Origin: Myxococcota bacterium
GTDB taxonomy: Bacteria; Myxococcota_A; Polyangia; Polyangiales; Sandaracinaceae
Direction of reading: 5' to 3'
DNA length: 39,373 nt
Assembly (NCBI GenBank): GCA_036149055.1
Contig: JAYZQJ010000053.1
Location: forward strand, 1 to 39,373
Part shown: positions 6,611-35,380 of the stretch, in pieces
Layout: every line of letters starts with the position of its first letter
How positions within the stretch are numbered: the stretch's first letter is position 1
Position numbers and translations under genes: made by a program
The notes under the pieces: model-generated
Seen by the model: only the letters and a program-made list of their open reading frames with translations
Told to the model about the DNA's origin: nothing
Database searches by the model: none

Positions 6611-7183
6611 ATGTTCGACATCCAGAGCCCGTGCGACGAGCGGTGGGAGGCGATGACCCCGCGGGGCGAGGGGCGGCACTGCGCGCGCTGCGATCGGGTG
6701 GTGGTCGATCTCTCCCGGCTGACCCGGGCGCAGGCGGAGGCGCGGATGAAGCGCGCCACCGGGCGCGTCTGCCTCGCCGTCCGCCGTGACGTCGTGACCG
6801 ATCGACCGGTCTTCCGGCCCGAGCCGGCGGTGGCGCCGCGCTGGGCGGGCGGGCTCGTGCTGGCGGCCGCGCTCGGCGGCGGGTGCGCGTCGGCGGAGGC
6901 GGCGCCGGCGGAGGTCGAGGTGCACGCCGAGCCCGAGCCGCTCCCGGAGCCCGGGCCCCCGATGGAGCCGGTGACCCGCGACGCCCAGGTCGAGCGAGCG
7001 GACGAGGCGCCGACCCTGGTCACCCGCGCCGTCCCGCAGGACGAGCTGGCGCTCGAGCCCGACCCGGCGACGCCGACCGCCGCGCAGCGCCGCCTGACCG
7101 CCGACAAGCATCGCCCCACGGTGTACCCCGCCACAGCGCACCCCGCGCACCCCGGCCGCACCTACCTCACGCTGGGGTTCTAG
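6611..7183 (+). CDS. Hypothetical protein with an N-terminal Cys-rich module (PCxExWxxM...RHCxxC..VVD), a TM segment and a Pro-rich tail
   Basis: IQSPCDERWEAMTPRGEGRHCARCDRVVVDLS resembles a recurrent unnamed N-terminal module; hydrophobic WAGGLVLAAALGGG follows. Confidence 0.6.
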   Translation: MFDIQSPCDERWEAMTPRGEGRHCARCDRVVVDLSRLTRAQAEARMKRATGRVCLAVRRDVVTDRPVFRPEPAVAPRWAGGLVLAAALGGGCASAEAAPAEVEVHAEPEPLPEPGPPMEPVTRDAQVERADEAPTLVTRAVPQDELALEPDPATPTAAQRRLTADKHRPTVYPATAHPAHPGRTYLTLGF

Positions 7184-9005
7184 CTCCGGCGTCCAGGTAG
7201 CTCTTGGCCTGGAGCGACCACATGCGCGCGTAGAGGCCGTCCGCTTCGAGCAGCTCCGCGTGGGTGCCGACCTCGGCGATCCGGCCACCGTCGAGCACCA
7301 CGATGCGGTCCGCCATCGGCACCGAGCTGAAGCGGTGGGTGATCAGGATCGCGGTGGCGTCCTTCTTCAGGTCGGCGAAGCGCTCGAAGATCTCGTGCTC
7401 GCCCTGCGCGTCGAGGGCGGCGGTGGGCTCGTCGAGCACGAGGACCTTGCTCTTGCGCATGAAGGCGCGGGCGAGCGCGAGGCGCTGCCACTGCCCGACC
7501 GAGAGCTCCTCGCCGCCGAACCAGCGGCCGAGCATCGCGTCGTAGCCCTCGGGCAGGCCCTCGATGGTCTCGTCGGCGCCGGCGAGCCGGGCCGCCTCCT
7601 TCGCGCGTTCGCGGTCGTCGATGTCGGGCATCCAGCCGAGGCCGACGTTCTCCTGCACCGAGAAGTGGTAGTGCACGAAGTCCTGGAAGAGCACGCCGAT
7701 GCGCGCGCGGAGCGCCCCGGGGTCGAGCTCGGCGATGTCCTCACCGCCGATCCGGACCTGACCTTCGCTGGGCGGATAGAGGCCGACGAGCAGCTTGATC
7801 AGCGTCGTCTTGCCCGCGCCGTTCGGGCCCACCAGCGCGATGGTCTCGCCGGCGCCGATCTCGAGGTCGATGTCCTCGAGCGCGGTCCGCTCGGATCCCG
7901 GGTAGCGGAAGGTCACGCCCTCGAAGCGGATCGACGGGCCGCTCTCGTCCAGCTCCGCCTCGGCGGGGGTCACCCGCGCGACGTCGTCGCTCTCCACCGC
8001 GAGCAGCTCGAAGAGGTTGTCCATGTAGAGGTTGTCTTCGTAGGCCCGGGCCAGGCTCAGCATCGCGCTCTGGAAGTCGCGCTGCCCCTGCCGGAACACC
8101 GTGAGGTAGAGCGTCATCGAGCCGAGGGTGATCACCCCGGCCGCGGTCTGCCCGACGATCACGACGTAGATGGCGTAGAAGACGAGCACGCTGAACACGC
8201 CGAAGACGGTCACCGCCGCGCCCCGCTTGCGCGCGAAGTCGCGATCCTCCTCGTAGAAGCGCTCGAACAGCGCGCGGTGCTTGCCGAGCAGCCACGAGCC
8301 GAGCGCGAAGAGCTTGATCTCCTTCACGTGGTAGTCGGCGGTCAGCAGCTGCTGCAGGTAATAGGCGCGCCGCTCGTCCTGGGTGCGCCGCACCCGCATC
8401 GCGTACTGCCCCGCCGCGAAGCGCGTGTCGGCGAGGAAGGGCAGGCTCGCGAGCAGCAGCGCCAGCACCGCCCAGACCGAGAACGAGAGCAGGAGCGCGC
8501 AGTAGCCGGTCAGGGTGAGCACGCTGCGGCCGAGCGACAGCCCCTGCGTGATCATCTCGAGGGGGCGCCACGAGCTCTCCTTGCGGGCCCGCTCCACCAC
8601 GTCCATCAGCGCCGGATCCTCGAAGTGCTTCAGGCTGAGCGAGAGCGTCTTCTCGAAGATGAAGGCGTCCACGTGGAGCGCGAGCCGGGTCCGCAGCAGC
8701 TGCGAGGCGTAGCCGAGGTACTGCCCGGAGGTGTGGGTCCCGAGGATGAGCAGCAGCTCGATCGCGACCCAGGTGAGCGCGTCCTCGGTCGGGTGCCCCG
8801 GGGTGTCGATCGCCAGCACCACCGCGTCGACGATCTGCTTGCCGACCCAGGCGATGGCCACCGGCAGGGCGGCGTTGACGATCGAGGCCGCGACGTAGCG
8901 GCCGGTGAGCCCGGGCTCGACTTTCCACGCGATGCCGATCGCGCGGCGCACGTTGCGGCCGAGGAGGCGGATCTGGCGCGCGGTGCTTCTCGGCGGCGAG
9001 GCCAC
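7167..9005 (-). CDS. ABC transporter, fused permease/ATP-binding exporter
   Basis: N-terminal TM domain; Walker A GPNGAGKTT; signature LSVGQWQR; Walker B VLVLDEPT; H-loop ITHR; GTG start. Confidence 0.93.
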   Translation of the reverse strand: MASPPRSTARQIRLLGRNVRRAIGIAWKVEPGLTGRYVAASIVNAALPVAIAWVGKQIVDAVVLAIDTPGHPTEDALTWVAIELLLILGTHTSGQYLGYASQLLRTRLALHVDAFIFEKTLSLSLKHFEDPALMDVVERARKESSWRPLEMITQGLSLGRSVLTLTGYCALLLSFSVWAVLALLLASLPFLADTRFAAGQYAMRVRRTQDERRAYYLQQLLTADYHVKEIKLFALGSWLLGKHRALFERFYEEDRDFARKRGAAVTVFGVFSVLVFYAIYVVIVGQTAAGVITLGSMTLYLTVFRQGQRDFQSAMLSLARAYEDNLYMDNLFELLAVESDDVARVTPAEAELDESGPSIRFEGVTFRYPGSERTALEDIDLEIGAGETIALVGPNGAGKTTLIKLLVGLYPPSEGQVRIGGEDIAELDPGALRARIGVLFQDFVHYHFSVQENVGLGWMPDIDDRERAKEAARLAGADETIEGLPEGYDAMLGRWFGGEELSVGQWQRLALARAFMRKSKVLVLDEPTAALDAQGEHEIFERFADLKKDATAILITHRFSSVPMADRIVVLDGGRIAEVGTHAELLEADGLYARMWSLQAKSYLDAGARTPA

Positions 9006-9045
9006 GGGCCTCGATTACCACGAAGCGTGTATCCTCGCGCGGCGC

Positions 9046-9972
9046 ATGACTCACCGGCCCGTCTTCGGGGTGAACCTGCCCTGGCTCTTCGGCTCGTACG
9101 GCCACGATCTCGCGGTCAACGAGCACTACGCCGACTGGGGCCACGCGTGGAGCGACGCGAAGGCGGCCCGCACCCTCGCCGACGCGCGCGCGCTCGGCTT
9201 CGACGCGGTGCGCATCTGGCTCTGCGAGAACGCCGAGGGGATCCGCACCGAAGGCGGACGGATCGTCGGCACGCACCCGGCCCTCCTCGACCACGTGGCC
9301 CGGCTGCAGGAGCGGCTCGCCGCCGAGGGGCTCGTCGCCTACTGGACCCTGCTGGACGGCAACAGCTGGAAGCGGGAGGCCGACGCGCTCACCCACCGGG
9401 TGCTGAGCGACCCGGAGGCGGCCGCGCGCTTCGCCGAGCGGGTCGCGGCGCCGATCGCCGAGGCCCTCGACCCGGCGCTGACCTTCGGCCTCGAGCTGCT
9501 CAACGAGCCCGAGGTGATGACCCACGAGTGCACCGAGGCCCCCTTCGTCGCCTGGGAGACCCTCGCCGAGACGCTCGGCGTGATCGGCGACGCGGTGAGA
9601 GGGCGGCACCGGGTCAGCGCTGGCACCATGCACGTCTTCTTGCCGAGTCTCTGGGGCGCCGGGCCCCGGCTCGACGCGATCGACGTGCACCTCTATCACC
9701 CGCAGGGCGGCCTCCCTCCGCGCTCGCACCTGGCGCGCTACTGCGAGGACGCGGCGGTGGCCGACGCCTTCCTGATCGGGGGCGAGTGCGGCCTGCCGGA
9801 CGAGGTCGGCGGCGAGGCGCTGCTGAGCTATCTGCAGAACGCGGTGACCGAGCGCTACGACGCGGTGTTCCTCTGGCGGCTCGAGCGGGTGCTCGTCACC
9901 CAGGACGAGGCGCGGGCGCCGACGGAGACCGGCGCGCAGGTCGCGCGGGCCCTCGCTCGGCTGAGGGGCTGA
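9046..9972 (+). CDS. Glycoside hydrolase, clan GH-A (GH5/cellulase-like TIM barrel)
   Basis: GVNLPW, GFDAVRIW, acid/base LLNEPE, DVHLY, nucleophile IGGECG; no signal peptide. Confidence 0.8.
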   Translation: MTHRPVFGVNLPWLFGSYGHDLAVNEHYADWGHAWSDAKAARTLADARALGFDAVRIWLCENAEGIRTEGGRIVGTHPALLDHVARLQERLAAEGLVAYWTLLDGNSWKREADALTHRVLSDPEAAARFAERVAAPIAEALDPALTFGLELLNEPEVMTHECTEAPFVAWETLAETLGVIGDAVRGRHRVSAGTMHVFLPSLWGAGPRLDAIDVHLYHPQGGLPPRSHLARYCEDAAVADAFLIGGECGLPDEVGGEALLSYLQNAVTERYDAVFLWRLERVLVTQDEARAPTETGAQVARALARLRG

Positions 9973-11525
9973 TGGCGATCCGGCTGCCCCGGTTCCTGGC
10001 GCCGCGCGAGCGGCCGACGCGCGAGGCCGGCGACGGGCGCCTGCGCTCGTGGGAGTGGCCGCTCGCCGCCCTGGTGGCGCTGCTGGCGGTGCTCTGGCTC
10101 GGCCGCGCGCCGCTCGACACGCCTTACTGGTGGGACGCGGCCGCGGTCTACGTGCCGGGAAGTCAGTGGGTCCGGGACCACGCCTTCGCCGCGTTCCCGG
10201 GGGTGTTCCCCAGCCTGCTCGCGCGCGGGCACACCACGCTCTTCTACGTGATCACCGCGGGGGCGTTCTCGCTCTTCGGCGACGCGCCGGCGGTCGGGCA
10301 CGCGGTGGTGCTGCTCTTCTCGGTGATGACGCTCGTCTACACCTACGCGCTCGGCACGCTCCTCTTCGGCCGGCTCGCCGGGGCGGCGGGCGCGCTCCTC
10401 GCCGCGGTGGCGCCGCTCTACCTCACGATCTCGTCGATGGTGCTGCCGGAGATCCCGCTCACCGCGCTGACCATGGCCTGCCTCTACGAGTGGGCGCGGG
10501 GACGGCACGTGAGCGCGGCGGTCTTCGGCGTCCTGGTGGTGCTCACCAAGGAGACGGGGCTCGCCTGCGCCTGCGCGGTGCTGGGGGCGACGGCGCTCTG
10601 GTCCTGGCGCGACCGGCGCGTGCGCGGGCGGGCCCTCGCGCTCGGCGGGCTCGCGCCGATGGTCGCGCTGGGGGCGTTCTTCGTCTGGCAGCGCGTGGCC
10701 GAGGGCTGGTGGGTGCTGCCCTTTCACGCGGAGCTCTTCGGGCAGGAGCACGACTATCTCTGGTCGGGCGTGAGCACCTTCCACTCGATGGCGCTGGCGG
10801 ACGGGCGCGCGATCGCCGTCTTCGCCGCGCTGCTGGTGGGCGGGCTGCGCCTCTACCGCGACCGGGAGACCTTCGGCCCGTTCACGCCGGGCCCGGGCGC
10901 GCCGCCGCGCTGGGCGATCGCGAGCGCCCTCGCCCTCGTCTTCCTCGCCAACCAGGTCTTCTTCACCAAGATGTGGTTCCTCGAGCGCTACGCGCTCCCC
11001 GCCCACCCGTGCCTGACGATCCTGCTCGCCGGGGCGCTGCTCCCGCGGGTCTGGGAGGAGGCGAAGGCCTACGCCGCGGTCGGGCTGGTCGCGGTCGCGG
11101 CCACCGCGGCGGTCGCGATCGATCGGGCCGAGGCGGGCGAGGGCTACGCGAGCGGCGAGACGACCTTCCGCTACCTCCACATGGTCGAGGCGCACCGCGA
11201 GATCTTCCGCGACCTCGAGGCCCGCGCCGAGCCGCCGCTGATCCTCTCGACCTGGCCGATCAGCTCCGAGCTCCGGGACCCGACGCTCGGCTGGGTCGAG
11301 CGCCCCTACGAGGTCGTCGGCATCACCGGCTACCTCGACGGCACCGACGAGGTCCGGGGCGACCGACCGATCGAGGCCATCGTCAGCGCCCACGGCATCG
11401 GCGACCACGAGGACCTGATGCGCGTGGCCGAGGAGCTCGGGATGCGCCGGACTCGCCGCGCGGTGGTGCGGGGCGCGGTGGTCGACCTCTACGAGCTCAG
11501 CGGAGCATCTCCGGCTCGTCGCTGA
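9972..11525 (+). CDS. GT-C membrane glycosyltransferase (GT39/ArnT/PMT-like)
   Basis: TGATG coupling to the GH gene; WDAAAVY after TM1, GHTTLFY, LPEIP, LTKETG, ERYALP; multiple TM helices plus a C-terminal periplasmic domain. Confidence 0.8.
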   Translation: MAIRLPRFLAPRERPTREAGDGRLRSWEWPLAALVALLAVLWLGRAPLDTPYWWDAAAVYVPGSQWVRDHAFAAFPGVFPSLLARGHTTLFYVITAGAFSLFGDAPAVGHAVVLLFSVMTLVYTYALGTLLFGRLAGAAGALLAAVAPLYLTISSMVLPEIPLTALTMACLYEWARGRHVSAAVFGVLVVLTKETGLACACAVLGATALWSWRDRRVRGRALALGGLAPMVALGAFFVWQRVAEGWWVLPFHAELFGQEHDYLWSGVSTFHSMALADGRAIAVFAALLVGGLRLYRDRETFGPFTPGPGAPPRWAIASALALVFLANQVFFTKMWFLERYALPAHPCLTILLAGALLPRVWEEAKAYAAVGLVAVAATAAVAIDRAEAGEGYASGETTFRYLHMVEAHREIFRDLEARAEPPLILSTWPISSELRDPTLGWVERPYEVVGITGYLDGTDEVRGDRPIEAIVSAHGIGDHEDLMRVAEELGMRRTRRAVVRGAVVDLYELSGASPARR

Positions 11526-12174
11526 GGAGCAGCGGGCCGTCCTCGGGCGCGTCCATCACGAGCCGCTGCGGCACGTTCGCGTCGCGGTAGCCGGCGCCCG
11601 CGCTCGCCGACTCGTCCGGGTCGCGCTCCCAGCGGCCCACGCCCACGACCGCGACGCGCTCGCCCGGCTCCACGACGCCCTCGCGGTAGCGCATCCCCTT
11701 GTTGAAGACGAGGCCCTGGCTGGTGTGCCCCCGCTCCGAGAGGAAGGCCTCGAGCTCCGGCGAGGCGTCGTTCAGGAACCCGGAGGAGAACTTGCCGTCC
11801 TTCTCGAGCACGCACTGCACGTAGGACGTCTTCACCAGGACCCGGTCGTCCCCGCTCTCGAGGAGGAAGTCGACGCCGTCGTGCTCGTCGATGATCGTGA
11901 CCCAGTGCCGGTTCTTGCCTCCACCGCGCTGCTCCTCGACGACGATCCGCCAGTAGGCGCAGGCGCGACCGCTGAGCGGCGCGCGCACGGTCTGCTCGGG
12001 ACGCGCGTGCCCGACGACGCGCGCGACCTGCCCGTTCTCGACCCGCGCGGCGGGCAGCTTGGGCACGGCCTTCATCGCCCGACGCGCCTTCTGGTCCGAG
12101 GAGAAGTACCAGCGGTAGAGGGCGAAGCCGCCGGCGCCGACGGCGAAGAGCGCGATGATCGTCAGCTTCACCAT
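11497..12174 (-). CDS. GIDE (MULAN-type) domain membrane-anchored protein
   Basis: N-terminal TM; APLSGRACAYW, W..I, F.L.....V.V and RYREGVVEPGERVAVVG motifs. Confidence 0.65.
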   Translation of the reverse strand: MVKLTIIALFAVGAGGFALYRWYFSSDQKARRAMKAVPKLPAARVENGQVARVVGHARPEQTVRAPLSGRACAYWRIVVEEQRGGGKNRHWVTIIDEHDGVDFLLESGDDRVLVKTSYVQCVLEKDGKFSSGFLNDASPELEAFLSERGHTSQGLVFNKGMRYREGVVEPGERVAVVGVGRWERDPDESASAGAGYRDANVPQRLVMDAPEDGPLLLSDEPEMLR

Positions 12175-12190
12175 CTCGCGAGCATACCGC

Positions 12191-12991
12191 TCACGGCGCG
12201 GCGGCGGGGGAGAGCCGGGTCTCGGTCGGCAGCCCCAGCCAGCGCTTCACCTCGGCGCGGAACGCCTCGTAGTAGCTGAGCCGATAGTGGAAGGGGTAGC
12301 GCCCGTAGGGGTGCTCGGGGTCGGCGGCCTGGGCCTTCGCCTCGCCCTGCAGCGTCGTCAGGCGCGGGACCTGCGCCTCGAGGTCGCGCGCGAGCCGCTC
12401 GCAGAAGCGGTAGTAGAAGTCGACCTGGTCGTTCAGCACGTCGACCTTGAAGCGCACGCCGTCGTTGCGGCAGGCGGGCGCGACGTGGAACGCGATCTCG
12501 AGCTCGGGCTTGATGGCGCGCAGGCGCGAGAGGAACTCCACCGCCGCGTCGCGGAACGGCGCGTAGTCGAGCTCCCAGAGGAAGCGGGCCTCGTGCTCGA
12601 GCTCGAGCGCGAAGTACTTCTCGACCTCCCAGCTCGAGAGGAAGGTGCGCCCGTCGGCCGCGTCGAGCTGCCGGAAGATGAAGCTGGTGACGACGTCGAA
12701 CACGAGCACCTGGTTGACGCGCGCCCCGCGCTCGAGCTTCGGGCCGTGGGTCTTGTCGAGCTCACCCTTGGCCATCGCGAAGCCCCAGGCGTTGGTGTCG
12801 TCGACCTCGCGGAGGCGCCGCTCGTCCTCGCGCAGCGCGCCGGTCACCAGGCTCGGGAAGCCGGTGCGCCCGACGTAGTCGAAGATGCGCACCCCCTCGT
12901 CGACGAAGGTGGGCCAGCCCGCGGCGCGGAAGCTGTCCGCGGTCCCGCACGAGCCGAGCACGGTGAGGTAGTGATGCGGCCGATCGGTCAT
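12191..12991 (-). CDS. DUF6270-like protein, possibly SGNH-fold acyltransferase/esterase
   Basis: ATGA overlap with the upstream gene; LGSCGTADSF at the N-terminus, YVGRTGFPSL, and C-terminal ADPEHPYGRYPFHY..SYY resemble DUF6270 as I recall it. Confidence 0.6.
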   Translation of the reverse strand: MTDRPHHYLTVLGSCGTADSFRAAGWPTFVDEGVRIFDYVGRTGFPSLVTGALREDERRLREVDDTNAWGFAMAKGELDKTHGPKLERGARVNQVLVFDVVTSFIFRQLDAADGRTFLSSWEVEKYFALELEHEARFLWELDYAPFRDAAVEFLSRLRAIKPELEIAFHVAPACRNDGVRFKVDVLNDQVDFYYRFCERLARDLEAQVPRLTTLQGEAKAQAADPEHPYGRYPFHYRLSYYEAFRAEVKRWLGLPTETRLSPAAAP

Positions 12992-14352
12992 GACGAGGCG
13001 AGCGCCTGGAGCGCGACCTTGCCGGTCTCGGTGCGCGGCAGGGCGTCCAGCCGGTGGAGCTCGGCGGGGATCATGTACGGGGGCAGCACGCCGGCGCAAT
13101 GGGCCCGGAGCGCGCGCGGCTCGGCGTCGCCCGCGTAGAACGCCTCGAGGTGCTCGCCGCGCGCCACCACCGCGCACTCGACGACGCCCGGGTGACGCGC
13201 CAGCGCGTGCTCGACCTCGCCCAGCTCCACCCGGTGCCCGCGCACCTTCACCATGCGATCGCGGCGACCGTGGAAGCGCAGCACGCCGTCGTGCTCGGAG
13301 ACGAGGTCGCCCGTCGCGTGGCGGCGCGGCGGCGGCGCGAGGGGGGCGCCCCAGTAGCCGGGGGTGACGGCCTCGCCCTCGACGATCAGCTCGCCGTCCT
13401 CGAGGGTGTGCTCCAGATGCGGCAGCACTCTCCCGATCGGGATGGGCGGCGCGTCGGCGGTGAGCGCCTCGACCCGGTGGGCGGCGCAGACGTTGGTCTC
13501 GGTCGGGCCGTACCAGTTCTCGAAGCGCGCCCCCGGGCACGCCTCCATCAGCGCCGCGAGCGCGGGGACGGGGAAGACCTCGCCCGCGAAGACGATGGCG
13601 CGCAGCGACGAGAGCGCCGCGCCCTGCTCGAGGAGCCGCTGCCAGAGCGTCGGCACCGCGTACATCACCGTCGGCCGGGTCTCGGCGATCCAGGCGGCGA
13701 GGGTGGCCGGGAAGAGCAGCGCCTCCCGGGGCGGGTGCAGCACCCGGGCGCCGGCCATCGGCGCGGCGAAGAGATCGAAGGTCGCCAGATCGAAGGTCAT
13801 CGGCGCGACCGCCGCGATCCGGTCGGCGGGGCTGAGCGCGAGGCGCGCGGCGGCCCACCGCGGGAAGGCGAGGGCGCCGCGGTGATCCCAGGTCACGCCC
13901 TTGGGCGCCCCGGTGCTGCCGGACGTGTAGAGGATGAAGGCGAGCCCGTCGGGCGTGGCCCGGTCGACGAGCGGCGCCTCCCCTCTGGCGACCTGCTGCC
14001 GGCGCGGCGCCTCGATCCGGCCGGCGAGCCGGGCGTGGGCCTCGTCGTGGAGGAGCAGCGCGGCGCCGCAGTCGGCGAGCGCGGCGCTCGAGCGGGCGGG
14101 CGGCGCGCTGGCGGAGAGCGGGACCGCGACCGCGCCGGCGGCGAGGATGGCGTGGAAGGCGGCGCTCCCTTCGCCGTCCCGCGCGGCGAGCAGGCCCACG
14201 CGCTCGCCGGGCGCCACGTCGAGCGAGGCCGCGATGCCGCCGACCCGCGCCGCGAGCCCCGCATGATCGAGCACGGCATGATCGGCCTCGATGGCCGCCT
14301 CCTCGCCGAAGCGGGCGGCGGCGTCCGTCAAGGAGGCGGTCAGCGTCGACAC
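12988..14352 (-). CDS. Stand-alone amino-acid adenylation enzyme (PltF/RedM/CloN4- or DltA-like)
   Basis: A3 LYTSGSTGAPKG, A4 FDLATFD, A5 NWYGPTETNVC, A7 TGD, A8 GRRDRMVKVRGHRVELGEVE, A10 LPRTETGKV; GTG start 2 nt after the ACAD stop. Confidence 0.9.
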   Translation of the reverse strand: MSTLTASLTDAAARFGEEAAIEADHAVLDHAGLAARVGGIAASLDVAPGERVGLLAARDGEGSAAFHAILAAGAVAVPLSASAPPARSSAALADCGAALLLHDEAHARLAGRIEAPRRQQVARGEAPLVDRATPDGLAFILYTSGSTGAPKGVTWDHRGALAFPRWAAARLALSPADRIAAVAPMTFDLATFDLFAAPMAGARVLHPPREALLFPATLAAWIAETRPTVMYAVPTLWQRLLEQGAALSSLRAIVFAGEVFPVPALAALMEACPGARFENWYGPTETNVCAAHRVEALTADAPPIPIGRVLPHLEHTLEDGELIVEGEAVTPGYWGAPLAPPPRRHATGDLVSEHDGVLRFHGRRDRMVKVRGHRVELGEVEHALARHPGVVECAVVARGEHLEAFYAGDAEPRALRAHCAGVLPPYMIPAELHRLDALPRTETGKVALQALASS

Positions 14353-14354
14353 GC

Positions 14355-15422
14355 TCAGAGCCCCAGGTGGGCCGCGAGGATCACCCGCTGCATGTCGCTC
14401 GTGCCGCTGTAGAGCACCCCGCCGACCGCGTCGCGGAGATGCGAAGGGAGGCCGGTCTCCTCGAGGTAGCCGGTGCCGCCGTGCAGGCGGATCGCGTCGA
14501 GGTGCTGCTCGAGCGCCCACTCGCTGAGCCGGAGCTTGGTCAGGCACGCGAGCGGCGCGTCGATCGCGCCGTCGGCGAGCGCGGTCGCGGCTCGCTCGAG
14601 CAGCATGCGGGCGAGCACGTAGCGCTCGTACATCTCGACCACCCGGGCGGCGACGAGCTGGTTCTTGCCGATCGGCCGGCCGAACTGCCGCCGGGTGCGC
14701 GCGTGCTTCAGCGCCCGCTCGAGCTGAGCGCGCATCACGCCGACCGCGGGCCCGAGGATGAGGGCCCGCTCGTGCAGCATCGCGGTGTGGAAGACCTTCG
14801 CGCCGCCGCCGGGCTCGCCCAGGATCGCGCTCGCCTCCACGCGGCAGCCCTCGAGGTAGAGGCTGGTGAGGCTCGCACGCGCGAGGCCCATCTTCTCCAT
14901 CGGCGCGCCCACCGTGAGGCCCTCGGCGCCTCGCTCCACCACGAAGCCGGTGACGCCCTCCGGCGCGCGCGCGAAGACCACGAAGACGTCGGCGTCGGCC
15001 CCGTTGGTGACCCAGAGCTTGCTGCCGCTCAGCCGGTAGCCGCCCGCCTCCGGGGTCGCGGTGGCCGCCATGGCCATCGTGTCCGAGCCGGCCTCGGCCT
15101 CGCTCGCCGCGTGGGCGCCGAGCCGCGCCCCGCGCCGCAGGGGCTCGAGGAGGCGCGCCCGGAGCGCGTCGGTGGCGTGGGCCGCGATCGGCGCGACGAC
15201 CGCGAGCGCGTGGGCGCCGAGGGCGAAGCAGAGGCCCGCGTCCGCCGTCTCGCCGAGGCCCTCCCACGCCTGCGCGAGCTCCGGCCCGCTCAGCTCGGCG
15301 GGATCGAAGAGCCCGAACGCGCCGACCTCGCGCGCCGCGTCCCGGAGTGAGCGATCCGCGAGCGTCGCGCCGAGCTTGGCCGCCTCGCGTTGCACCGGGC
15401 CGCGCTCGGGGAGCGCCCGCAT
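14355..15422 (-). CDS. Acyl-CoA dehydrogenase family, L-prolyl-[PCP] dehydrogenase-like
   Basis: SEAEAGSD, GSKLWVTNG, KMGL, RRQFGRPI, HGGTGY, YSGTSDMQR; EGLG....GLCFALGAH..AVVAPI resembles PltE/RedW/CloN3. Confidence 0.88.
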   Translation of the reverse strand: MRALPERGPVQREAAKLGATLADRSLRDAAREVGAFGLFDPAELSGPELAQAWEGLGETADAGLCFALGAHALAVVAPIAAHATDALRARLLEPLRRGARLGAHAASEAEAGSDTMAMAATATPEAGGYRLSGSKLWVTNGADADVFVVFARAPEGVTGFVVERGAEGLTVGAPMEKMGLARASLTSLYLEGCRVEASAILGEPGGGAKVFHTAMLHERALILGPAVGVMRAQLERALKHARTRRQFGRPIGKNQLVAARVVEMYERYVLARMLLERAATALADGAIDAPLACLTKLRLSEWALEQHLDAIRLHGGTGYLEETGLPSHLRDAVGGVLYSGTSDMQRVILAAHLGL

Positions 15423-16897
15423 CAGCCCTTCAGCCTCGCGCGGTCGGGGCTCGCGAGGAGATCGTCGATGCCCCCGGTCCCCTCGTCGAAGAGGAAGGCC
15501 GCGCGGTAGCCGTGCTCGCGCGCCTCGGCGAGCGCGGCCACCGCCGCGTCGACGTCGGCGGCGGGGCGGGTGGCGAGGATGGTGTCGCGCACGAGCGACA
15601 CGTGGCGCGCCGGCCGGAGCGCCTCGGAGCCGTGCGCCGCGTAGACGTCGAGCCCGATCCCGTCGCAGCGGCCGTCCTCGATCGGCCCGAGGCCCTGGAC
15701 CGACGCGGTCACCGGCACCTCGGCGCGGTGGCTGTGCGCCGCGCGGGCCGCCTCGGTGAGCTGGGCGTGGGCCGAGCTCCACGTGACGCCCTCGCCGATC
15801 TCGCCGTCCCAGCCGGAGGCGAGGTCGACCAGCCACGCGCCGGCCGGCGCCTCGAAGCGCTGCACGTCGTCGACGATCCAGCACGCCGCGAGCCCGCGCT
15901 CGTCGATCGCCGCCTGCGCCGCCTGCGCGTTGCCCGCGCCGAGCCGGAGGCGCACCGCGTCGAGCCCCAGCTCCTTGGCGCCGTCGAGCCGGCGTCGGAG
16001 CTTGTCGAGGTCGCCGTCGAAGGAGAGGTTCACGCCGCGCCGGAAGCCGTCGCCGAGGCGCGCGCGCCGCAGCGCGATGGCCTCGGCCGACTCCGGGCCG
16101 TCCGCGGGCGGCTTGCGCAGGGTCACGGCCATCGCCGCGAAGGTGTGGAGCTTGAACGCGCTCATCCGGTGATGGAGCGTGTCCCAGTCGTCCGAGGTGT
16201 AGAGCGTGGTGCCCTCGATCTCGAGCCCGCTCGGCGCGATCGCGTTGCGCTGAAGAGCGAGACGATCGTAGACGACGTCGTCCTCGCTCCGGCGCTCGAC
16301 CTCGTCGTAGTCGACGGTCAGGTAGAGCACGCCGCCCGGCTTGAGCACCCGGTTCATCTCGCGCGCCACGCCGGGCTGGGCCTCGGGATCGATGTGCTCG
16401 AGGACCGAGATGCAGTAGACGCGGTCGAAGGTGGCGTCGGGGAAGCGCAGGCTCGTCATGTCCATCTCGACCGGCACGACCGCGGCGCGGTGAAAGGACG
16501 CGGCCTGCTGCAGCATGGTCAGCCAGCGGAGGTCGTTGTCGATCGCGACCACCGTCGCGCCGAGCTCGGCGAGGGTGATGGGCAGGGCCGAGACCCCGCA
16601 GCCGGCGTCGAGCACCAGCTCGCCTTCGGGCGCGTCGTGGCGGGTGAGCGCCCAGGGGTACTCCCAGACCTTCGACGGGTAGACGAAGGAGAGCTGCTGG
16701 CCCGCCTCCTCCTTCTCCCGCGCGATCTGGGCGGCGATGCGGCGGTTGGCGCCCGCCATCGGCTCGCGGCGGATGTCGTCCGGCTCCAGGATCCGGTTGT
16801 CGGCCTGCTCGGGCCTGGGCTCGTCGCCGGTCGGGTGCACCACCGGCGGCTCGAGCGGGACCGGGCGGTCGGGCTTCTCGAATTCCTCGTCGCTCAC
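15422..16897 (-). CDS. Class I SAM-dependent methyltransferase fused to a degenerate GH5-like C-terminal domain
   Basis: WEYPW, VLDAGCG, FPDATFD.V.CISVLEHI, RVLKPGG; C-terminal GVNL...GLDAVRL...DVY...GYRAAFLF; GTGA overlap with the ACP gene. Confidence 0.8.
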   Translation of the reverse strand: MSDEEFEKPDRPVPLEPPVVHPTGDEPRPEQADNRILEPDDIRREPMAGANRRIAAQIAREKEEAGQQLSFVYPSKVWEYPWALTRHDAPEGELVLDAGCGVSALPITLAELGATVVAIDNDLRWLTMLQQAASFHRAAVVPVEMDMTSLRFPDATFDRVYCISVLEHIDPEAQPGVAREMNRVLKPGGVLYLTVDYDEVERRSEDDVVYDRLALQRNAIAPSGLEIEGTTLYTSDDWDTLHHRMSAFKLHTFAAMAVTLRKPPADGPESAEAIALRRARLGDGFRRGVNLSFDGDLDKLRRRLDGAKELGLDAVRLRLGAGNAQAAQAAIDERGLAACWIVDDVQRFEAPAGAWLVDLASGWDGEIGEGVTWSSAHAQLTEAARAAHSHRAEVPVTASVQGLGPIEDGRCDGIGLDVYAAHGSEALRPARHVSLVRDTILATRPAADVDAAVAALAEAREHGYRAAFLFDEGTGGIDDLLASPDRARLKG

Positions 16898-17127
16898 GCG
16901 CTCTTCTTTCGCTGCACGAACGCGCGGATGGCGGTGAGCGTGCGGAAGTTGCCCGGCACGATCTCGTCCTGCGCGACGGTGATGCCCTCCGCGTCCTCGA
17001 GGTTCGCGACCAGGCGGATGATGGCGAGCGAGTCGAGCATCCCGGGCGCCAGCAGGTCGTCGTCGTCGGTGACGTCCTCGGCGCCGGGCAGCTCGTCCCG
17101 GAGGAACTGACGTATCGCGTCGCTCAC
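16894..17127 (-). CDS. Acyl/peptidyl carrier protein (DltC/PltL-like, 77 aa)
   Basis: LLAPGMLDSLAIIRLV phosphopantetheine Ser motif; EIVPGNFRTL; GTGA overlaps at both ends. Confidence 0.9.
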   Translation of the reverse strand: MSDAIRQFLRDELPGAEDVTDDDDLLAPGMLDSLAIIRLVANLEDAEGITVAQDEIVPGNFRTLTAIRAFVQRKKSA

Positions 17128-18137
17128 GGCGCGGGATGGTAGCGCATGCCGGCCGCGGGGGAGACGGCGCGTTTCCGCCGGTCCCAGACCATGTGCAGCA
17201 TCGCGCCGGTCGCCCACCCCCAGAGCCCCATCACGAAGAGCCCGAAGATGGTCAGCTCGCCCCACCACGGGATCGCCCAGACCTGCAGGAACACGCCGAG
17301 CGCCGCCGACGGAACCGTCCACCGCGAGGCGCGCAGGAAGTAGCCGAGCAGGATCCGGAACTGGGCCCGCGAGAAGAGGCACGGGTAGTAGGCGCTGACG
17401 ATCATCGGGTAGTCCGAGACGTTCATCGTCGAGACCATCGGGTAGTGGAACGCGAAGAGCGTCAGCACCGCGGGGATCCGGAGGCGCGGCACCCGCCAGG
17501 CGATCCAGGGCACGCAGCACTCGACGAAGAGCGTGCCGTAGACCGCGCACCACGCCGCCCAGGTCGGCAGCTCGCTCCCGAGGTCGGCGTAGATCCAGAA
17601 CTGCGCCATCGCGTGGACGGCCGGGCTCGACGGCGCGAGCTCGAGGAAGTTCGCGTTGATCTTGTGGAAGCCCGCGAAGAAGTAGTTGACGCAGAGGATC
17701 AGCGCGAGGCCGTTCACCGCGTGTCGGTCGACCGTGCGCGAGCGCGGCCCGCCGCCCCGGAAGCGGTGCGCGCCCATCAGCCACCCCACGATCCAGACCA
17801 CGCCGAGCATGGTCAGGCCGCTGAACATGTGGCTCATGTGGTTCCGGATCCGGAACGGGTAGGTCAGGTAGTGCGCCCAGTAGATCAGGACGATCGTGAA
17901 GAGCCACTGCCGCCGCCGGTCGAGGGCGAGCCCGATCACCGCCGCCGCGAGCATGAAGGCGAGCACCACCGGCACCCACCCGGGCAGGAGCTGATGCCAG
18001 CCCGGCTGGAACGCCTCGCGCGCCCACGCGTGCGCCTCCCACGGCCGGTCCTCGCCGAGCAGCTGCAGGGTGTGTCCCACGAACGCGGGCACCAGCAGGA
18101 TCCCGAACGCCTGCAGGCGGAGGTCCTTGCTGATCAC
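17124..18137 (-). CDS. HTTM / vitamin K-dependent carboxylase-like (SdpB-like) multi-pass membrane protein
   Basis: Several TM helices; RNH, YFFAGFHKIN (compare VKGC YFIAGVKKLD), conserved E in LFVE, and FH motif. Confidence 0.7.
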   Translation of the reverse strand: MISKDLRLQAFGILLVPAFVGHTLQLLGEDRPWEAHAWAREAFQPGWHQLLPGWVPVVLAFMLAAAVIGLALDRRRQWLFTIVLIYWAHYLTYPFRIRNHMSHMFSGLTMLGVVWIVGWLMGAHRFRGGGPRSRTVDRHAVNGLALILCVNYFFAGFHKINANFLELAPSSPAVHAMAQFWIYADLGSELPTWAAWCAVYGTLFVECCVPWIAWRVPRLRIPAVLTLFAFHYPMVSTMNVSDYPMIVSAYYPCLFSRAQFRILLGYFLRASRWTVPSAALGVFLQVWAIPWWGELTIFGLFVMGLWGWATGAMLHMVWDRRKRAVSPAAGMRYHPAP

Positions 18138-18661
18138 GGATCCTCCGGCGGCCAGGGGTAGGGGTAGTGGCTGTCATAGAGCCGCACCGGGATCCAGCTG
18201 TGCGGATCGCTGAAGCGAGGATCGGCGCAGGCGTCGCCGGTGCGCTGGACCGGGCCGCCCGCGACGGGCCGGCGCGACATGCGCACCGCGTGCCCGGCGT
18301 CGCAGAGCTGCCGAACGGCGACCCGGATCGCCTCGTCGTTGTGCTGGATGCCGTCCCGGTGCAGCCACTCGACGAGGTCGGCCTCGCGCCCCGCCCTCGG
18401 CGCCGGCGTCACCTCGACCTCGAGCTCGATGTAGAAGATCCAGAGCGAGCTCAGCATGCGCTGAGGCGCGATCAGGTGGTTGTTCGACCGCTCCTGCCAC
18501 GAGAGCCCCGAGAACATCGTCTGGCAGCTGTCGTCCCGCAGCCCGATGTAGGGGAGGCTGTTGTTGGTGAACTGCAGCGCGCCGACGATCGCCACCGCGG
18601 CGAAGAGCGCGCGGCGGAGCCGGCGGTCGGCGTCGGGGCTGGTCTCGCGCGGGCGCGGCAT
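18134..18661 (-). CDS. Membrane-anchored protein, probable partner or split C-terminal module of the HTTM protein (SdpA/DUF5819-like position)
   Basis: One TM then PYIGL....QTMFSGL....SNNHL; GTGA overlap with the HTTM gene. Confidence 0.65.
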   Translation of the reverse strand: MPRPRETSPDADRRLRRALFAAVAIVGALQFTNNSLPYIGLRDDSCQTMFSGLSWQERSNNHLIAPQRMLSSLWIFYIELEVEVTPAPRAGREADLVEWLHRDGIQHNDEAIRVAVRQLCDAGHAVRMSRRPVAGGPVQRTGDACADPRFSDPHSWIPVRLYDSHYPYPWPPEDP

Positions 18662-27831: not shown

Positions 27832-29052
27832 GTGTGCAAGGCTCCGTGCGTGCATGCGAGAGCTGGAGCCGCCGCGCTGCTCGTGGCCTGGAGCTCGCTC
27901 GGCTGCAGTCGCGGGGCGGCGCGCCCCGCCGAGGTCGCCACCTCGTTCGACCTGGGCGACAAGATGCGGCGGCTCGAGCGTGACCTGGGCTTGAGCCGGT
28001 CACAGACCCGCTACTTCCCTCAGGTGCCCGCCCCCGAAGACGTCTCCCCGCCGCGCTGGATGGCCGTGGAGGCGCACGGCGCGCGCGGGCCCCTCGAGGA
28101 GCTCGACGGGCCCGGGGTCGTCGTCGAGGTGAGCGAGCTCGGGGAGCTCGACGTCTCGAGCGCCCACCGCTTCCTGCCGGCGGCCTCGCGCGCCGCGCAT
28201 GGCAAGGACGTGGACTGGATCGCGTTCGTGACGCGCGTGCCGCTGGAGGTGGAGCTGACCGAGGGCTTCGTGCCCTTCGAGCGCGTCGATCTGCGCCTCG
28301 TGCTGGCGCGGTCCGAGCGGGTGGTGGCGCGCGGGACGGTCGAGGCGGTGCCTTCGGGCGCCGTGCGTGTGGAAGGGCACGTACCCGAGGCTGCGGTGGC
28401 CGCGCTCGTGCAGCGGGCCCTCGAAGCCGCCCGCGCCGCGCCCGAGACCCTCGCCGCGGACCCACTGTCGCTGGACGCATGCCTGGCCGACCAGATGACG
28501 AGCCCTCGAGAGGCGGAGCCGAGCCCGGCCTGCCTCGCGGGACGCCTGACCGAGTGTCTGACCAGCTGTCACGCGGGGAACGGGCGCAGCTGCGCGGAGG
28601 CGGCGTACGTCCAGGAGGCGGCCGAAGACGCCTCGACGCTCCCTCTCTACGCCGAGGGCTGCGCCTACGGGGACGTCAACGCCTGCGTCAACTGGGGCGC
28701 CACCGTATGGACGCTGGCCAGGACGGGCCAACTGGAGGCGACCGACGAGGCCATGCGGTGCACGATGCGCGTCTTCGAGCGCGCCTGCGAGCAGGGAGAG
28801 CCGTTCGGCTGCGGGATGTTCGGCAAGGGCCTGGTGACCGGGCTCGACGGGGCGGTGGAGGTGGACCTCGAGCGCTCCGAGGCGCTGCTGGTGGACACCT
28901 GTGAGCGCTACGGGCTGTTCCCGTGCGAGGTCCTGGGCGTCCTGCGGCGGAATGGGGACTTCGGCGAGGACGCCGTGGCGCTCGCCGACGAGGCGACCCA
29001 GCGCGCGTGCGACACCGGCTACACGCCCGCGTGCCACGCGCTCACGCCGTGA
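27832..29052 (+). CDS. Putative lipoprotein with Cys-rich Sel1-like (Hcp-type) repeats
   Basis: Lipobox-like SLG-C; repeated (A/G/S/T)C..G....C motifs (EGCAYGDVNAC, RACEQGEPFGC, RACDTGYTPAC). Confidence 0.65.
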   Translation: MCKAPCVHARAGAAALLVAWSSLGCSRGAARPAEVATSFDLGDKMRRLERDLGLSRSQTRYFPQVPAPEDVSPPRWMAVEAHGARGPLEELDGPGVVVEVSELGELDVSSAHRFLPAASRAAHGKDVDWIAFVTRVPLEVELTEGFVPFERVDLRLVLARSERVVARGTVEAVPSGAVRVEGHVPEAAVAALVQRALEAARAAPETLAADPLSLDACLADQMTSPREAEPSPACLAGRLTECLTSCHAGNGRSCAEAAYVQEAAEDASTLPLYAEGCAYGDVNACVNWGATVWTLARTGQLEATDEAMRCTMRVFERACEQGEPFGCGMFGKGLVTGLDGAVEVDLERSEALLVDTCERYGLFPCEVLGVLRRNGDFGEDAVALADEATQRACDTGYTPACHALTP

Positions 29053-29848
29053 ACGCGAGGACGTGATCGCGGGTGGCGTGGGGGCGCTCGGTCGGGAAGT
29101 CGTGGCCGGCGCCCTCGAGCCACTCGAGGCGGGCGCCGGGGATGCGAGCCGCGAGGCGGCGGCTGTTGTCGGGGTGGATCAGCCGGTCGGCGTCGCCGTG
29201 CAGGAGCAGGGTGTCGTGCTCGATGTGGTGGAGCATCGACCAGGCCTCGTGGCGAGCGGCCGCGTAGAGCTGGCCGAGCACGCCGCGCCGGCTGTGGGGC
29301 TCGCGCTCCGCCACCGCGATCCAGCGATCGACGATCTCGGGGCTGCGGCGGAGGTGCTCGGCGCTGAGGACCCAGGGGGCGCTGAAGCGGATGGCGCGGC
29401 GCTTCGGCATCGTGGCGCTGCGGGCGAGGGCGAGGGCCGCGGCCGGCTCGATGCGCTTGGCGCCGCGGCCGCCCGGGGTGGTGCACGCGAGCATCAACCG
29501 CTTCACCCGGTGCGGGTGCCGGAGCGCCAGGTGCTGCGCCACCATGCCGCCGAGGCTGATGCCGAAGACGTCGGCGCGCTCGACGCCGCTGTCGCGCAGC
29601 ACGTCGGCCACGTCGTCCGCCATGTCTTCGGTGCTCCACGGCCCGCGCGGCGTGCTGCTGCGGCCGACGCCGCGGTTGTCGAGCACGAGCACCGTTCGGT
29701 GCTGCTCCAGGAGATCGCGGAAGTCGAACCAGTAGGCGCTCGAGCGGGAGAGGCCGCGGATGAGCACCAGCGGCGCGCCGCGTCCGCCCACCTCGTAGTA
29801 GAGGCGGCTGCCGTCCGGGCGCTCGAGCGTGCGGGGCTCGCGGCTCAC
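29042..29848 (-). CDS. Alpha/beta hydrolase fold protein
   Basis: GTGA overlap with the upstream gene; DNRGVGRS, nucleophile GISLGG, HGDAD, GAGH. Confidence 0.9.
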   Translation of the reverse strand: MSREPRTLERPDGSRLYYEVGGRGAPLVLIRGLSRSSAYWFDFRDLLEQHRTVLVLDNRGVGRSSTPRGPWSTEDMADDVADVLRDSGVERADVFGISLGGMVAQHLALRHPHRVKRLMLACTTPGGRGAKRIEPAAALALARSATMPKRRAIRFSAPWVLSAEHLRRSPEIVDRWIAVAEREPHSRRGVLGQLYAAARHEAWSMLHHIEHDTLLLHGDADRLIHPDNSRRLAARIPGARLEWLEGAGHDFPTERPHATRDHVLAFTA

Positions 29849-30801
29849 GGGCACCGGCAGCCCCAGCTCTCGGGGAGGCGCGGGCAGATGGTCTCGGCGA
29901 TGACCTGGTGGCCGGCCGGGTTCGGGTGGATGTGGTCGAAGCCGCGGTACTCGCGGCGCAGGAACCAGCGCGGCGCGCTCGCCATCAGCCGCGCGTCGGC
30001 CTCGAGCCGGGCCTCGCGCTCGGCGTCGGACAGCTCCGAGACGCTCGCGCGCCAGCGGGCGTCGCGCTCGATCTTCCGGCGCACGTCGTCGAGCGGCCAG
30101 GGCTCGGCGTCCCGGTCCCGCAGCGGCGAGTCGTAGAGGTCGACGACCACGTCCGGCCGCTCCGCGTCGCTCCAGCCCTGGCCCGGGCTCGACCGCTCGC
30201 GCGCGAACTGGCCGAGCGCCTCGGCGGGGCTGAGCCGGCCGAGCTGGAAGCCCACGACGTTGCGCGTCGCCTTCAGGGCGTGCAGCGCGCGGCCGCCCTC
30301 CCAGCGCTCGTCGTCGTCGCCGTCGTCGCCCCACGGCGTGAGCGAGAGCGAGACCACCCGGACGCCGCGGCGATGGGCCAGCTCGAAGGTGCGGCGGATC
30401 GCCCGGTTGGTCCGGTGCGGCGCGCCGACGCTGTTCATGCCGCCGCCGAACATCAGCCACACCTCGGTCCCCGGCGCGCGGATGGGCACGTTGGGGTTCT
30501 CGAGCACCTCCGAGCGGAAGCGCGACGCCAGCTGCGGGGCGCCGTGCCCCACCTGCGAGAGGTTCCGGACCTCGACGTTCTCGCACCACTCGTGGATGAG
30601 CCGCGGGTACGGGCGGTTGGGCGAGGCGCCGATCGAGCCGGCGAGCAGCACGACCTTGATCGGGCGGTCGTGGTGGGTGAACCGCCAGTCCGGGTCGGCC
30701 CAGGCGTACCCCGCGGTGTGGCGTTGCGCGACCGCCAGCGAGCCCACGCACGAGAGCGCGAGCGCCAGCGCGACGAGGCCGAGCTTTCGGGAGCGCCCCA
30801 T
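29845..30801 (-). CDS. Secreted SGNH/GDSL-like hydrolase
   Basis: Signal peptide; block I LLAGSIG, block II G, block III GGMN, block V DHIHPNPAGH. Confidence 0.75.
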   Translation of the reverse strand: MGRSRKLGLVALALALSCVGSLAVAQRHTAGYAWADPDWRFTHHDRPIKVVLLAGSIGASPNRPYPRLIHEWCENVEVRNLSQVGHGAPQLASRFRSEVLENPNVPIRAPGTEVWLMFGGGMNSVGAPHRTNRAIRRTFELAHRRGVRVVSLSLTPWGDDGDDDERWEGGRALHALKATRNVVGFQLGRLSPAEALGQFARERSSPGQGWSDAERPDVVVDLYDSPLRDRDAEPWPLDDVRRKIERDARWRASVSELSDAEREARLEADARLMASAPRWFLRREYRGFDHIHPNPAGHQVIAETICPRLPESWGCRCP

Positions 30802-32470: not shown

Positions 32471-33505
32471 TCAGCCCTTCAGGGCCTCGGCGCCGCCGAT
32501 GATCTCCATCAGCTCGGTCGTGATCGCGGCCTGACGGGCGCGGTTGTAGACGAGCGTGAGGCGGTCGATCATGTCGGAGGCGTTCTTGGTCGCCGAGTCC
32601 ATCGCCGTCATGCGGGCGCCGTGCTCGGAGGCCACCGACTCGAGCAGCGCGCGGAAGACCTCGGTCTCGAGGTACATCGGCAGGATGCGGTCGAGGAGCG
32701 CTCGCTTGCTCGGCTCGTAGATGAAGTCGACCGCCTGGTCCTCCTCGCTCGCGACCTCTTCGGGCACGATGGGGAGGAGCTGCTCGACCTCGACGTTCTG
32801 GGTCATCGCGCTCTTGAACTCGTTGTAGACGAGGTAGACCGCGTCGAGGTTCGGCTCGGCGTCCTCGAACGAGTCGGTGGGCGTGAAGGTCTCGGCGCCC
32901 TCGTCGGTCTCGGCCAGGCCGTGCGGCTTGCCCTCGAGGCTGTCGACGTCGACCGACGGGCCCGGGGCGAGCTTGCGACCCTCGGCCTCGGCGGCCGCGA
33001 GGCGCGCCTGACCGCCCGCGATGTACTCGCCGACGATGTAGCGGCCGATCTCGCCCGCGCTGTCGACGGTGAGGTTCTCGAACACGCCGGTGAAGTCCCG
33101 GCGGATGTTCGCGCCGCGGCGGCGGAAGAAGTCACGCCCCTTGCGGCCGATGACCGCGAAGCTGACCTCGACGCCCTCGTCCTCGAGCGCCTTCCACTTG
33201 AGGTAGGCCGCCTTGTTGACGTTGGCGTTGAACGCGCCGGCGAGGCCGCGGTCGCTGGTGAGGACCACCAGCATGACCCGCTTCGGATCCCGGCGCGCGA
33301 GGAGGGGGTGGACGTCCTCCTCGCCCGCGCGGCTGGCCACGGAGCTGAGGACCTCGAGGGTCTTGAGCGCGTAGGGCCTGAGCTCGGTGATGGCCTGCTG
33401 CGCCTTCGCGAGGCGAGCGGCCGCCACCATCTTCATCGCCCGGGTGATCTTCTGCGTGCTTTTGACGCTTCCGATGCGCTTCCGGATCGCTTTGAGGTTC
33501 GCCAT
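32471..33505 (-). CDS. atpG: F1 ATP synthase gamma subunit (with a ~50-aa acidic insertion)
   Basis: MANLKAIRKRIGSVKSTQKIT.AMKMVAA, SDRGLAG, SEHGARMTAM, YNRARQAAITTEL. Confidence 0.98.
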   Translation of the reverse strand: MANLKAIRKRIGSVKSTQKITRAMKMVAAARLAKAQQAITELRPYALKTLEVLSSVASRAGEEDVHPLLARRDPKRVMLVVLTSDRGLAGAFNANVNKAAYLKWKALEDEGVEVSFAVIGRKGRDFFRRRGANIRRDFTGVFENLTVDSAGEIGRYIVGEYIAGGQARLAAAEAEGRKLAPGPSVDVDSLEGKPHGLAETDEGAETFTPTDSFEDAEPNLDAVYLVYNEFKSAMTQNVEVEQLLPIVPEEVASEEDQAVDFIYEPSKRALLDRILPMYLETEVFRALLESVASEHGARMTAMDSATKNASDMIDRLTLVYNRARQAAITTELMEIIGGAEALKG

Positions 33506-33546
33506 CGAATGCTCCGTGAGGGAAGGGAAGGGGGATCAGCGGAGGA

Positions 33547-35292
<1,746 letters not shown>

Positions 35293-35380
35293 GTCGTCCC
35301 TCTGGGCCTCGCGCCCGACGTGGGCGCGGGATGAAATGTTCTGGTGTCGAGCGGTCGAGCCGGGGCTCGAGCGCGAAATC

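Follow-up and report, generated by a model that had tools for sequence, protein, structure and literature searches.

A proline-type adenylation-carrier-dehydrogenase triad beside a DUF6270 protein in a marine myxobacterium: a possible acylating arm of a glycosylation system

The window analysed, the entire 39,373-base contig JAYZQJ010000053.1 (C53) of a marine myxobacterium (source genome G000; 9.9 Mb, 96% complete), carried on its minus strand an operon of seven genes, labelled g1 to g7 in reading order, which consists of two modules. Close homologues came from sources that name Sandaracinaceae. Genes g3 to g7 encode a carrier protein, a methyltransferase, a dehydrogenase, an adenylation (A) domain enzyme and a DUF6270 protein, and g1 and g2 encode an HTTM membrane protein with its small partner. 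The A domain, carrier and dehydrogenase make up a familiar type of triad. New, as far as could be found, was that this triad is coupled to a DUF6270 protein with a cysteine in an SGNH fold and to a glycosylation system that has a pair resembling gamma-glutamyl carboxylase (GGCX). Tentatively, g3 to g7 are proposed as an optional tailoring arm of that glycosylation system, which would acylate a sugar with a pyrrolyl (or pyrrolinyl) group in the cytoplasm before its export.

Gene g6 (12988-14352, minus strand; 454 aa) encoded a stand-alone adenylation enzyme for which specificity for L-proline was strongly predicted from its sequence. The closest solved match of its core was the L-proline carrier-protein ligase 6o6e, and its pocket was identical to that of 7thn at 8/9 positions and to that of 6o6e at 6/9 (printed alignments). 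Entries 6o6e and 7thn are presumably PigI and PltF, and the numbering of the pocket positions is likewise presumed. The specificity code, DLFYVAWVCK, was proline-type, and g6 and eight homologues made up a separate clade of 9 rows (support 100/100) with codes DLFY[VLI]A[WFL]VCK. DltA models scored 120-136 bits on g6 (cut-offs 476-560). A candidate lesion in g6, a 10-residue difference from a near-identical strain, was a duplication in the record of that strain and was rejected. The stand-alone carrier g3 (16894-17127, minus strand; 77 aa) matched PF00550 with 26.1 bits (cut-off 20.8) and had its phosphopantetheine site at Ser33, D32-S33 being invariant in 7/7 aligned sequences. Its orthologue in the relative G002 (61%) also adjoined a methyltransferase gene.

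The dehydrogenase g5 (14355-15422, minus strand; 355 aa) was, by its best matches, of the prolyl-S-carrier type represented by PigA, RedW and AnaB. Among NCBIfam models it scored highest with PigA (257 bits) and RedW (239), below their cut-offs of 500 and 650, and the next family reached 159. Against PDB entries it scored 217.5 bits with the prolyl-acyl-carrier-protein (ACP) dehydrogenase 4irn and 158.5 with the first ordinary acyl-CoA dehydrogenase; the top four rows were one prolyl-ACP dehydrogenase, 6cxt (labelled butyryl-CoA dehydrogenase) and two prolyl-peptidyl-carrier-protein dehydrogenases. Entry 6cxt is taken to be Bmp3 and 4irn to be AnaB. The product of g5 may be a pyrrole or a pyrroline. 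GTDB contigs searched with g5 patterns yielded 9 distant loci (29-36%). The proline-type triad had been recognised in an earlier, sequence-only reading of the window, as had the motifs YGPTETNVC and GLCFALGAH, which were both present; the pocket of g6 and the best matches of g5 agreed with that assignment.

The DUF6270 protein g7 (12191-12991, minus strand; 266 aa; PF19786) had an SGNH fold in its model (predicted local distance difference test score, pLDDT, 94; first core strand from residue 7), in line with the likeness suggested by the sequence-only reading. Structural matches at Z 9-12 included the GDSL esterase 7e16 (Z 12.0, root-mean-square deviation 3.5, 172 aligned), PatB (Z 11.3), OatA (10.0) and the salicylyl transferase SsfX3 (9.2). 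Foldseek gave E 7e-6, and nearly all 50 structural rows were SGNH/GDSL proteins. Residues G13-S14-C15 sat after the first strand, where SGNH enzymes carry Gly-Asp-Ser with the nucleophile third. The nucleophile slot, assigned by position only, was C15, and H235 had no Asp three residues ahead of it (SGNH block V: Asp-x-x-His). Across 60 rows of a DUF6270 alignment, C15 was kept in 55, H235 in 58 and H227 in 59. According to the available text of a survey of 30 SGNH structures, the nucleophile is Ser in all except Oskar, and the residue ahead of it may be Thr, as in AlgJ and AlgX (PMC10792757). The nucleophile of g7 would be a cysteine, fitted to take over the acyl moiety of a carrier thioester, and g7 was regarded with moderate confidence as the acyl-transfer step, a putative acyltransferase. 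Neither a signal nor a hydrophobic or membrane segment was present in its model and hydropathy scan, and the protein looks cytoplasmic. Glycan-related fusions occurred in 3/19 scanned DUF6270 relatives (GT2 plus a TagF-type transferase, Asp2, and heparinase II/III). Of 401 genomes from the phylum, only G000 and the relative G001 had PF19786 above cut-off, and the DUF6270 alignment recovered just 2 loci, both near-identical, from metagenomes. No paper found in open-access main texts named DUF6270; supplements, such as that of a preprint on DUF complexes, could list it.

Gene g4 (15422-16897, minus strand) encoded a class I S-adenosylmethionine (SAM) methyltransferase joined to a barrel-like domain. 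The methyltransferase domain lay at about residues 90-195 (PF08241, E 5e-20). The sequence-only reading had described a fusion of a methyltransferase with a glycoside hydrolase; the methyltransferase stood, and the other, C-terminal part resembled the GH-A-like family next door only weakly (hhalign probability 27.6) and was shortened in G002. This barrel-like domain is probably decaying and inactive.

All seven genes were intact (third-position GC content, GC3, 0.95-0.98), and Pfam matches over cut-offs in the operon were PP-binding, methyltransferase, acyl-CoA dehydrogenase, AMP-binding and DUF6270. The genes and their six junctions lay where the sequence-only reading had placed them, with stop/start overlaps of 4 bases at 18134, 17124, 16894 and 12988, an overlap of 1 base between g4 and g5 at 15422 and a gap of 2 bases between g5 and g6 (14353-14354). 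No sigma-70 promoter, intra-operon terminator or Rfam match was found for the operon. Contigs of an RNA run (X1, seawater) spanned the locus with few differences (pieces 15598-17658 and 11341-12514); the flanks were covered as well, so this coverage cannot demonstrate transcription or a single transcript.

Co-occurrence was tallied over 201 genomes, which include the unpublished G023; kin among them are not independent, and a P value was omitted. Orthologues of g7 and of the g4 methyltransferase domain were found in the same 3/201 genomes (G000, G001 and G002). The g5-type dehydrogenase occurred in 14/101 genomes and was close only in G001 (82%) and G002 (69%), the others being at <=50%. In G001 the order g1 to g6 was kept and g7 lay on a separate contig behind unrelated genes, the operon having probably been split by insertion. 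Upstream of g7 in G001 (L096:15275-19999) were exporter, HlyD-like and methyltransferase genes, and downstream of g6 (L028:142-978) was an unrelated open reading frame (ORF) at the contig start. G002 also had all seven genes, distributed over three contigs at four places (g1-g2; g3-g4; g6-g7; g5), and the 4-base overlap of g6 and g7 was common to G000 and G002. The order of the operon is thus local and the gene set is kept. The single unit proposed by the sequence-only reading held as an operon in this species and not as a conserved arrangement (six of seven together in G001, four places in G002), and the HTTM pair stood without the triad nearby in 16/16 other loci.

The A domain and DUF6270 genes were also linked in metagenomes, where four of 11 A-domain matches equalled four of 11 DUF6270 matches in longest-contig size (2759, 86910, 10637 and 17417). 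The contig counts of these pairs agreed in three and were 2 vs 1 for 10637. The 2759-base contig fits only near-adjacent A domain and DUF6270 genes (2358 bases required), and the pairwise identities of the matched A domains and DUF6270 proteins agreed (Spearman 0.57; 12/720 permutations as high).

Other triads of the order belonged to different clades and had as neighbours KS (ketosynthase) genes (G066), hydrolases plus a halogenase-like gene (a second locus of G066) or an unassigned protein (G003). At L031:9350-15815 of G066, two type II KS genes and a ketoreductase gene came immediately after a pyrrole triad, possibly forming a pyrrolyl-polyene cluster. The triad at L036:7791-12051 of G003 (also L032 and L034) formed a separate clade without KS or DUF6270, and in G003 it was preceded by a protein of 379 aa that neither Pfam nor NCBIfam matched; at G000:C147:12024 a look-alike of this protein begins, and a carrier and an A domain come after it in the vicinity of exopolysaccharide genes. 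At L098:459-7642 of G005, an A domain of a different code, a methyltransferase, a carrier and asparagine-synthase-like and NAD-synthase-like genes lay next to genes for GT2 and hexapeptide transferases, a further case of a carrier-dependent module in glycan surroundings.

Next to the operon lay a GT-C (PMT_2) membrane glycosyltransferase gene (9972-11525, plus strand; PF13231 over cut-off) and the gene of a cytoplasmic GH-A-like protein (8905-9972, plus strand), in which N200-E201-P202 and E294 were invariant (7 aligned; PF00150 matched weakly by 1/7). PMT_2 genes occurred in 30 and GH-A-like genes in 31 of the 201 genomes. Among the 19 genomes with g2 homologues, 18 had the PMT_2 gene that is next door here and 17 the GH-A-like gene, which upheld the link to envelope glycosylation made by the sequence-only reading; within family f9, all three were present in the same 4/40 genomes. 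The PMT_2 and GH-A-like genes adjoined the g3-g7 module in G000, G001 (on the g7 side) and G002, at <3 kb between PMT_2 and g6 in G002. In several genomes they were part of a large cluster that also encodes YfhO, GT2 enzymes (one of polyprenol-phosphate type, one fused to a deacetylase), two radical SAM enzymes, GDSL proteins, a carbamoyltransferase, an epimerase and a UDP-sugar dehydrogenase (in G000 at C240:15600-52300 and C81:60700-67700; elsewhere L145, L146, L148 and L081), and the YfhO gene was also found in G001 and G002. This company points to a lineage-restricted, polyprenol-linked glycosylation system within part of this order.

The g3-g7 module is considered optional in that system because 27/30 PMT_2 genomes were without g7. 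Five genomes with good PMT_2 matches (G137, G146, G189, G135 and G139) returned no g5-type dehydrogenase or DUF6270 match in searches run without a positive control. Two metagenome HTTM proteins equalled A domain and DUF6270 sets in longest-contig size (10637 and 17417). They sat in a branch of the HTTM tree other than that of g2, and the pyrrole module therefore appears to lie beside parts of the glycosylation system in two lineages.

The small partner g1 (18134-18661, minus strand; 175 aa) had no Pfam or NCBIfam match. Its closest Atlas clusters (0.94-0.97) carried DUF8388 on 18-36% of their members, and its only pointer to a VKGC lumenal domain was an Atlas score of 0.79. Conserved cysteines suggest an extracytoplasmic domain; its N-terminal hydrophobic stretch, a putative membrane anchor, was below the 1.6 hydropathy threshold. 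The membrane protein g2 (17124-18137, minus strand; 337 aa) had no Pfam match of its own, and PF05090 (HTTM) was matched by 12/46 homologues. Of the HTTM pair described by the sequence-only reading, only g2 was thus HTTM-like; its partner g1 resembled DUF8388 clusters, with a role that may compare to that of DUF5819, SdpA or LinL. The top 15 Foldseek rows of the g2 model (pLDDT 94) were all GGCX (E 0.005 or worse), and GGCX ranked first in a second fold search too (Z 7.8), these scores being modest; sequence searches of g2 against the PDB gave no GGCX alignment. Residues N99-H100, K159 and E206 were invariant in 46/46 sequences. The spacings of H100-K159-E206 (59 and 47) were close to those of GGCX H160-K218-D263 (58 and 45), a comparison made without a sequence alignment to GGCX, and H160, K218 and D263 are given as catalytic in the portions consulted of 10.1101/2025.02.09.637231 and PMC13486548.

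The pair g1-g2 was predicted, from sequence and model, to be a split gamma-carboxylase-like enzyme, with weak confidence in its role. SdpA/SdpB is one split pair of this kind. Others are DUF5819 + HTTM, from structure prediction, and the linaridin LinL/LinG, according to the available text of 10.64898/2026.08.19.745780 and 10.1101/2020.07.09.196543. An acyltransferase role for HTTM/GGCX-type proteins was described nowhere in the portions of the cited papers that were available. The genes around 16 other g2 loci (from 15 genomes; several on short contigs) included g1 in 14 and g3 to g7 in 0. In the favoured reading, g1-g2 would be an older part of the glycosylation system and not a trans-membrane acyl carrier. 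An alpha-2-macroglobulin gene lay beside the HTTM pair in four genomes of one genus (L070, L073, L077 and L078).

PltF/PltL/PltE, PigI/PigG/PigA, RedM/RedO/RedW and AnaC/AnaD/AnaB share with the present triad a stand-alone proline-type A domain, a small carrier and a flavin dehydrogenase that, by best matches, is of the same subfamily. Unlike these type II pyrrolyl modules, the contig had no KS, condensation domain or halogenase: none of the 26 KS and 11 condensation matches of G000 was on C53, and a scan of 36 window proteins (two short ORFs left out) matched neither a halogenase nor a KAS III family, so that the absence of an assembly line at the locus, asserted by the sequence-only reading, was confirmed. 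In further contrast to them, the enzymes here were shorter (454 and 355 aa), formed their own clade and had DUF6270 and a class I methyltransferase as partners. The accessible text of PMC11218499 describes a proline-derived pyrrolyl group and a methyltransferase also for clorobiocin (CloN1-CloN7), where pyrrole-2-carbonyl goes onto the 3'-OH of a deoxysugar; a sugar acceptor is likewise proposed here. Relative to clorobiocin, the present operon had one carrier, no CloN2 relay and an SGNH-fold protein instead of CloN7. It also had a class I methyltransferase instead of CloN6, which is a radical SAM enzyme, and no aminocoumarin genes, and the acceptor proposed is an envelope glycan. As proposed, the module would represent CloN-like chemistry with a different transferase.

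SsfX3, PatB, OatA-C and AlgJ/AlgX resembled g7 in fold (Z 9.2-11.3), in block I after the first strand and, by position, in a block V His, and differed from it in that g7 by position has Cys and not Ser in the nucleophile slot, looks cytoplasmic and is proposed to use a carrier-thioester donor. DltABCD also combines an A domain, a carrier and an SGNH-like protein near envelope genes; here the code was for proline and not D-alanine, an oxidation step was added, MBOAT was lacking and the SGNH protein was unexported. DUF5819 + HTTM, LinL/LinG and MloH, in the texts available in part, and likewise SdpA/SdpB, resemble g1-g2 as a small partner gene plus an HTTM protein with a catalytic lysine (a putative one in g2), the partner here being DUF8388-like and the genomic company being glycosylation genes. 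No peptide precursor or LinE-like gene was present within the seven-gene operon, small ORFs not having been searched systematically. Literature searches on this gene set (HTTM/SdpB, pyrrole-glycan and Sandaracinaceae-pyrrole) found no description of it in open-access main texts.

In the proposed mechanism, g6 would activate L-proline and load it onto the carrier g3, and g5 would oxidise prolyl-S-g3 to the pyrrolyl-2-carbonyl-S-carrier or stop at the pyrroline. In the cytoplasm, Cys15 of g7 would accept the acyl group, His235 acting as base, and g7 would then acylate a nucleotide- or polyprenol-linked sugar at a hydroxyl or amino group; a free amine on that sugar could, speculatively, come from the deacetylase of the cluster. 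Methylation of the pyrrole or the sugar would be the part of g4, and GT-C enzymes, for example the neighbouring PMT_2, would move the decorated sugar to an envelope acceptor. Both the sugar as acceptor and the methyl target of g4 are weakly indicated.

Several observations weighed against this mechanism. The scores of g5 were under the PigA and RedW cut-offs, and its closest solved match, 4irn, presumably is the two-electron enzyme AnaB. Many SGNH folds are plain hydrolases, and the best structural rows of g7 were esterases. In G002, g5 was 4.3 kb from g7, with the carrier on another contig. G000 to G002 are kin, so their joint presence of genes partly reflects common ancestry, and in the four metagenome cases the linkage was deduced from equality of contig size and not from DNA that was read. 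Glycan genes were near HTTM in 5/16 loci only, four others being beside alpha-2-macroglobulin genes, and g7 was missing from most PMT_2 genomes.

Somewhat unlikely, but the strongest competing explanation, was that the product of g3 to g7 is a small, diffusible metabolite, g7 freeing pyrrole-2-carboxylate or moving it to a small alcohol or amine and g4 methylating it, with the glycosylation neighbours there by chance. The mostly hydrolase matches of g7, the acylation of a small molecule by SsfX3, the very fluid gene order in this family and a nearby ABC (ATP-binding cassette) exporter (7167-9005, minus strand; PF00005; with homologues in regions fetched from 9 genomes) were in its favour. However, DUF6270 fusions point to glycans, the module still adjoined the PMT_2 and GH-A-like genes in G002 despite the scattering of its own genes, and equal contig sizes tied it to genes on a second branch of the HTTM tree.

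Cytoplasmic acylation of a sugar could also be combined with a second chemistry. The DUF6270 protein, as a cysteine SGNH enzyme, would put a carrier-bound, possibly methylated pyrrole-2-carbonyl on the sugar, and g1-g2 would apply quinol-derived base chemistry (epimerisation, elimination or carboxylation) to the same glycan. This extended reading was considered doubtful; if true, both chemistries would be unrecorded, g1-g2 would be the first such enzyme acting on carbohydrate, and DUF6270 a class of cysteine glycan acyltransferases.

A Dlt-like relay, favoured by the sequence-only reading, in which the HTTM pair would carry the acyl group across the membrane like DltB and the SGNH protein would complete the transfer outside, was judged improbable. 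DltD-type proteins are SGNH-like, g1-g2-g3 were coupled in G000 and G001, and HTTM genes matched the A domain and DUF6270 in contig size in two distant cases. However, g7 had no export signal or membrane segment, and g2 retained residues that, by spacing, appear to match GGCX H160, K218 and D263, of gamma-carboxylase and not of acyltransferase type. Moreover, g7 was missing from 16/19 HTTM-gene genomes, g3 to g7 were beside HTTM in 0/16 other loci, and the 4 MBOAT matches of G000 were all on contigs other than C53. Of similarly low probability was the supply of a pyrrolyl starter in trans to a distant polyketide synthase (type II or iterative type I), for which the 26 KS and 11 condensation matches of G000 and the related triad directly preceding two KS genes and a reductase in G066 spoke, but in G002, which has all seven genes, no condensation domain was found and only two of the 14 KS matches were long frames (these matches leave room for a type II partner), the KS-linked A domains were in a clade apart from g6, and the constant coupling to DUF6270 would be left unexplained.

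Among the remaining genes of the window, a GIDE-like membrane protein (11497-12174, minus strand; PF12483 below cut-off) was encoded 16 bases behind g7; the gene was also behind g7 in G001, but not at the G002 locus, and is probably a co-transcribed passenger. An alpha/beta hydrolase and GDSL-like gene pair lay at 29045-30801, 10 kb from the operon. ATP synthase genes occupied 32471-37433, where the ORF at 35926-36975 (349 aa) had its b-subunit domain confined to the second half.

The range of the module is narrow, with orthologues in 3/201 genomes, and a sugar is its putative acceptor. If the proposed mechanism is true, an antibiotic pyrrole module has been reused for decorating a cell-surface sugar, and this pyrrole decoration would be an undescribed one. 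DUF6270 would gain a function open to testing and, as a cysteine-SGNH enzyme, an unusual mechanism, and the donor arm, comprising four soluble proteins, would be testable in vitro without culture of the host. Around it, part of this myxobacterial order would have an undescribed glycosylation system that includes a bacterial gamma-carboxylase-like pair.

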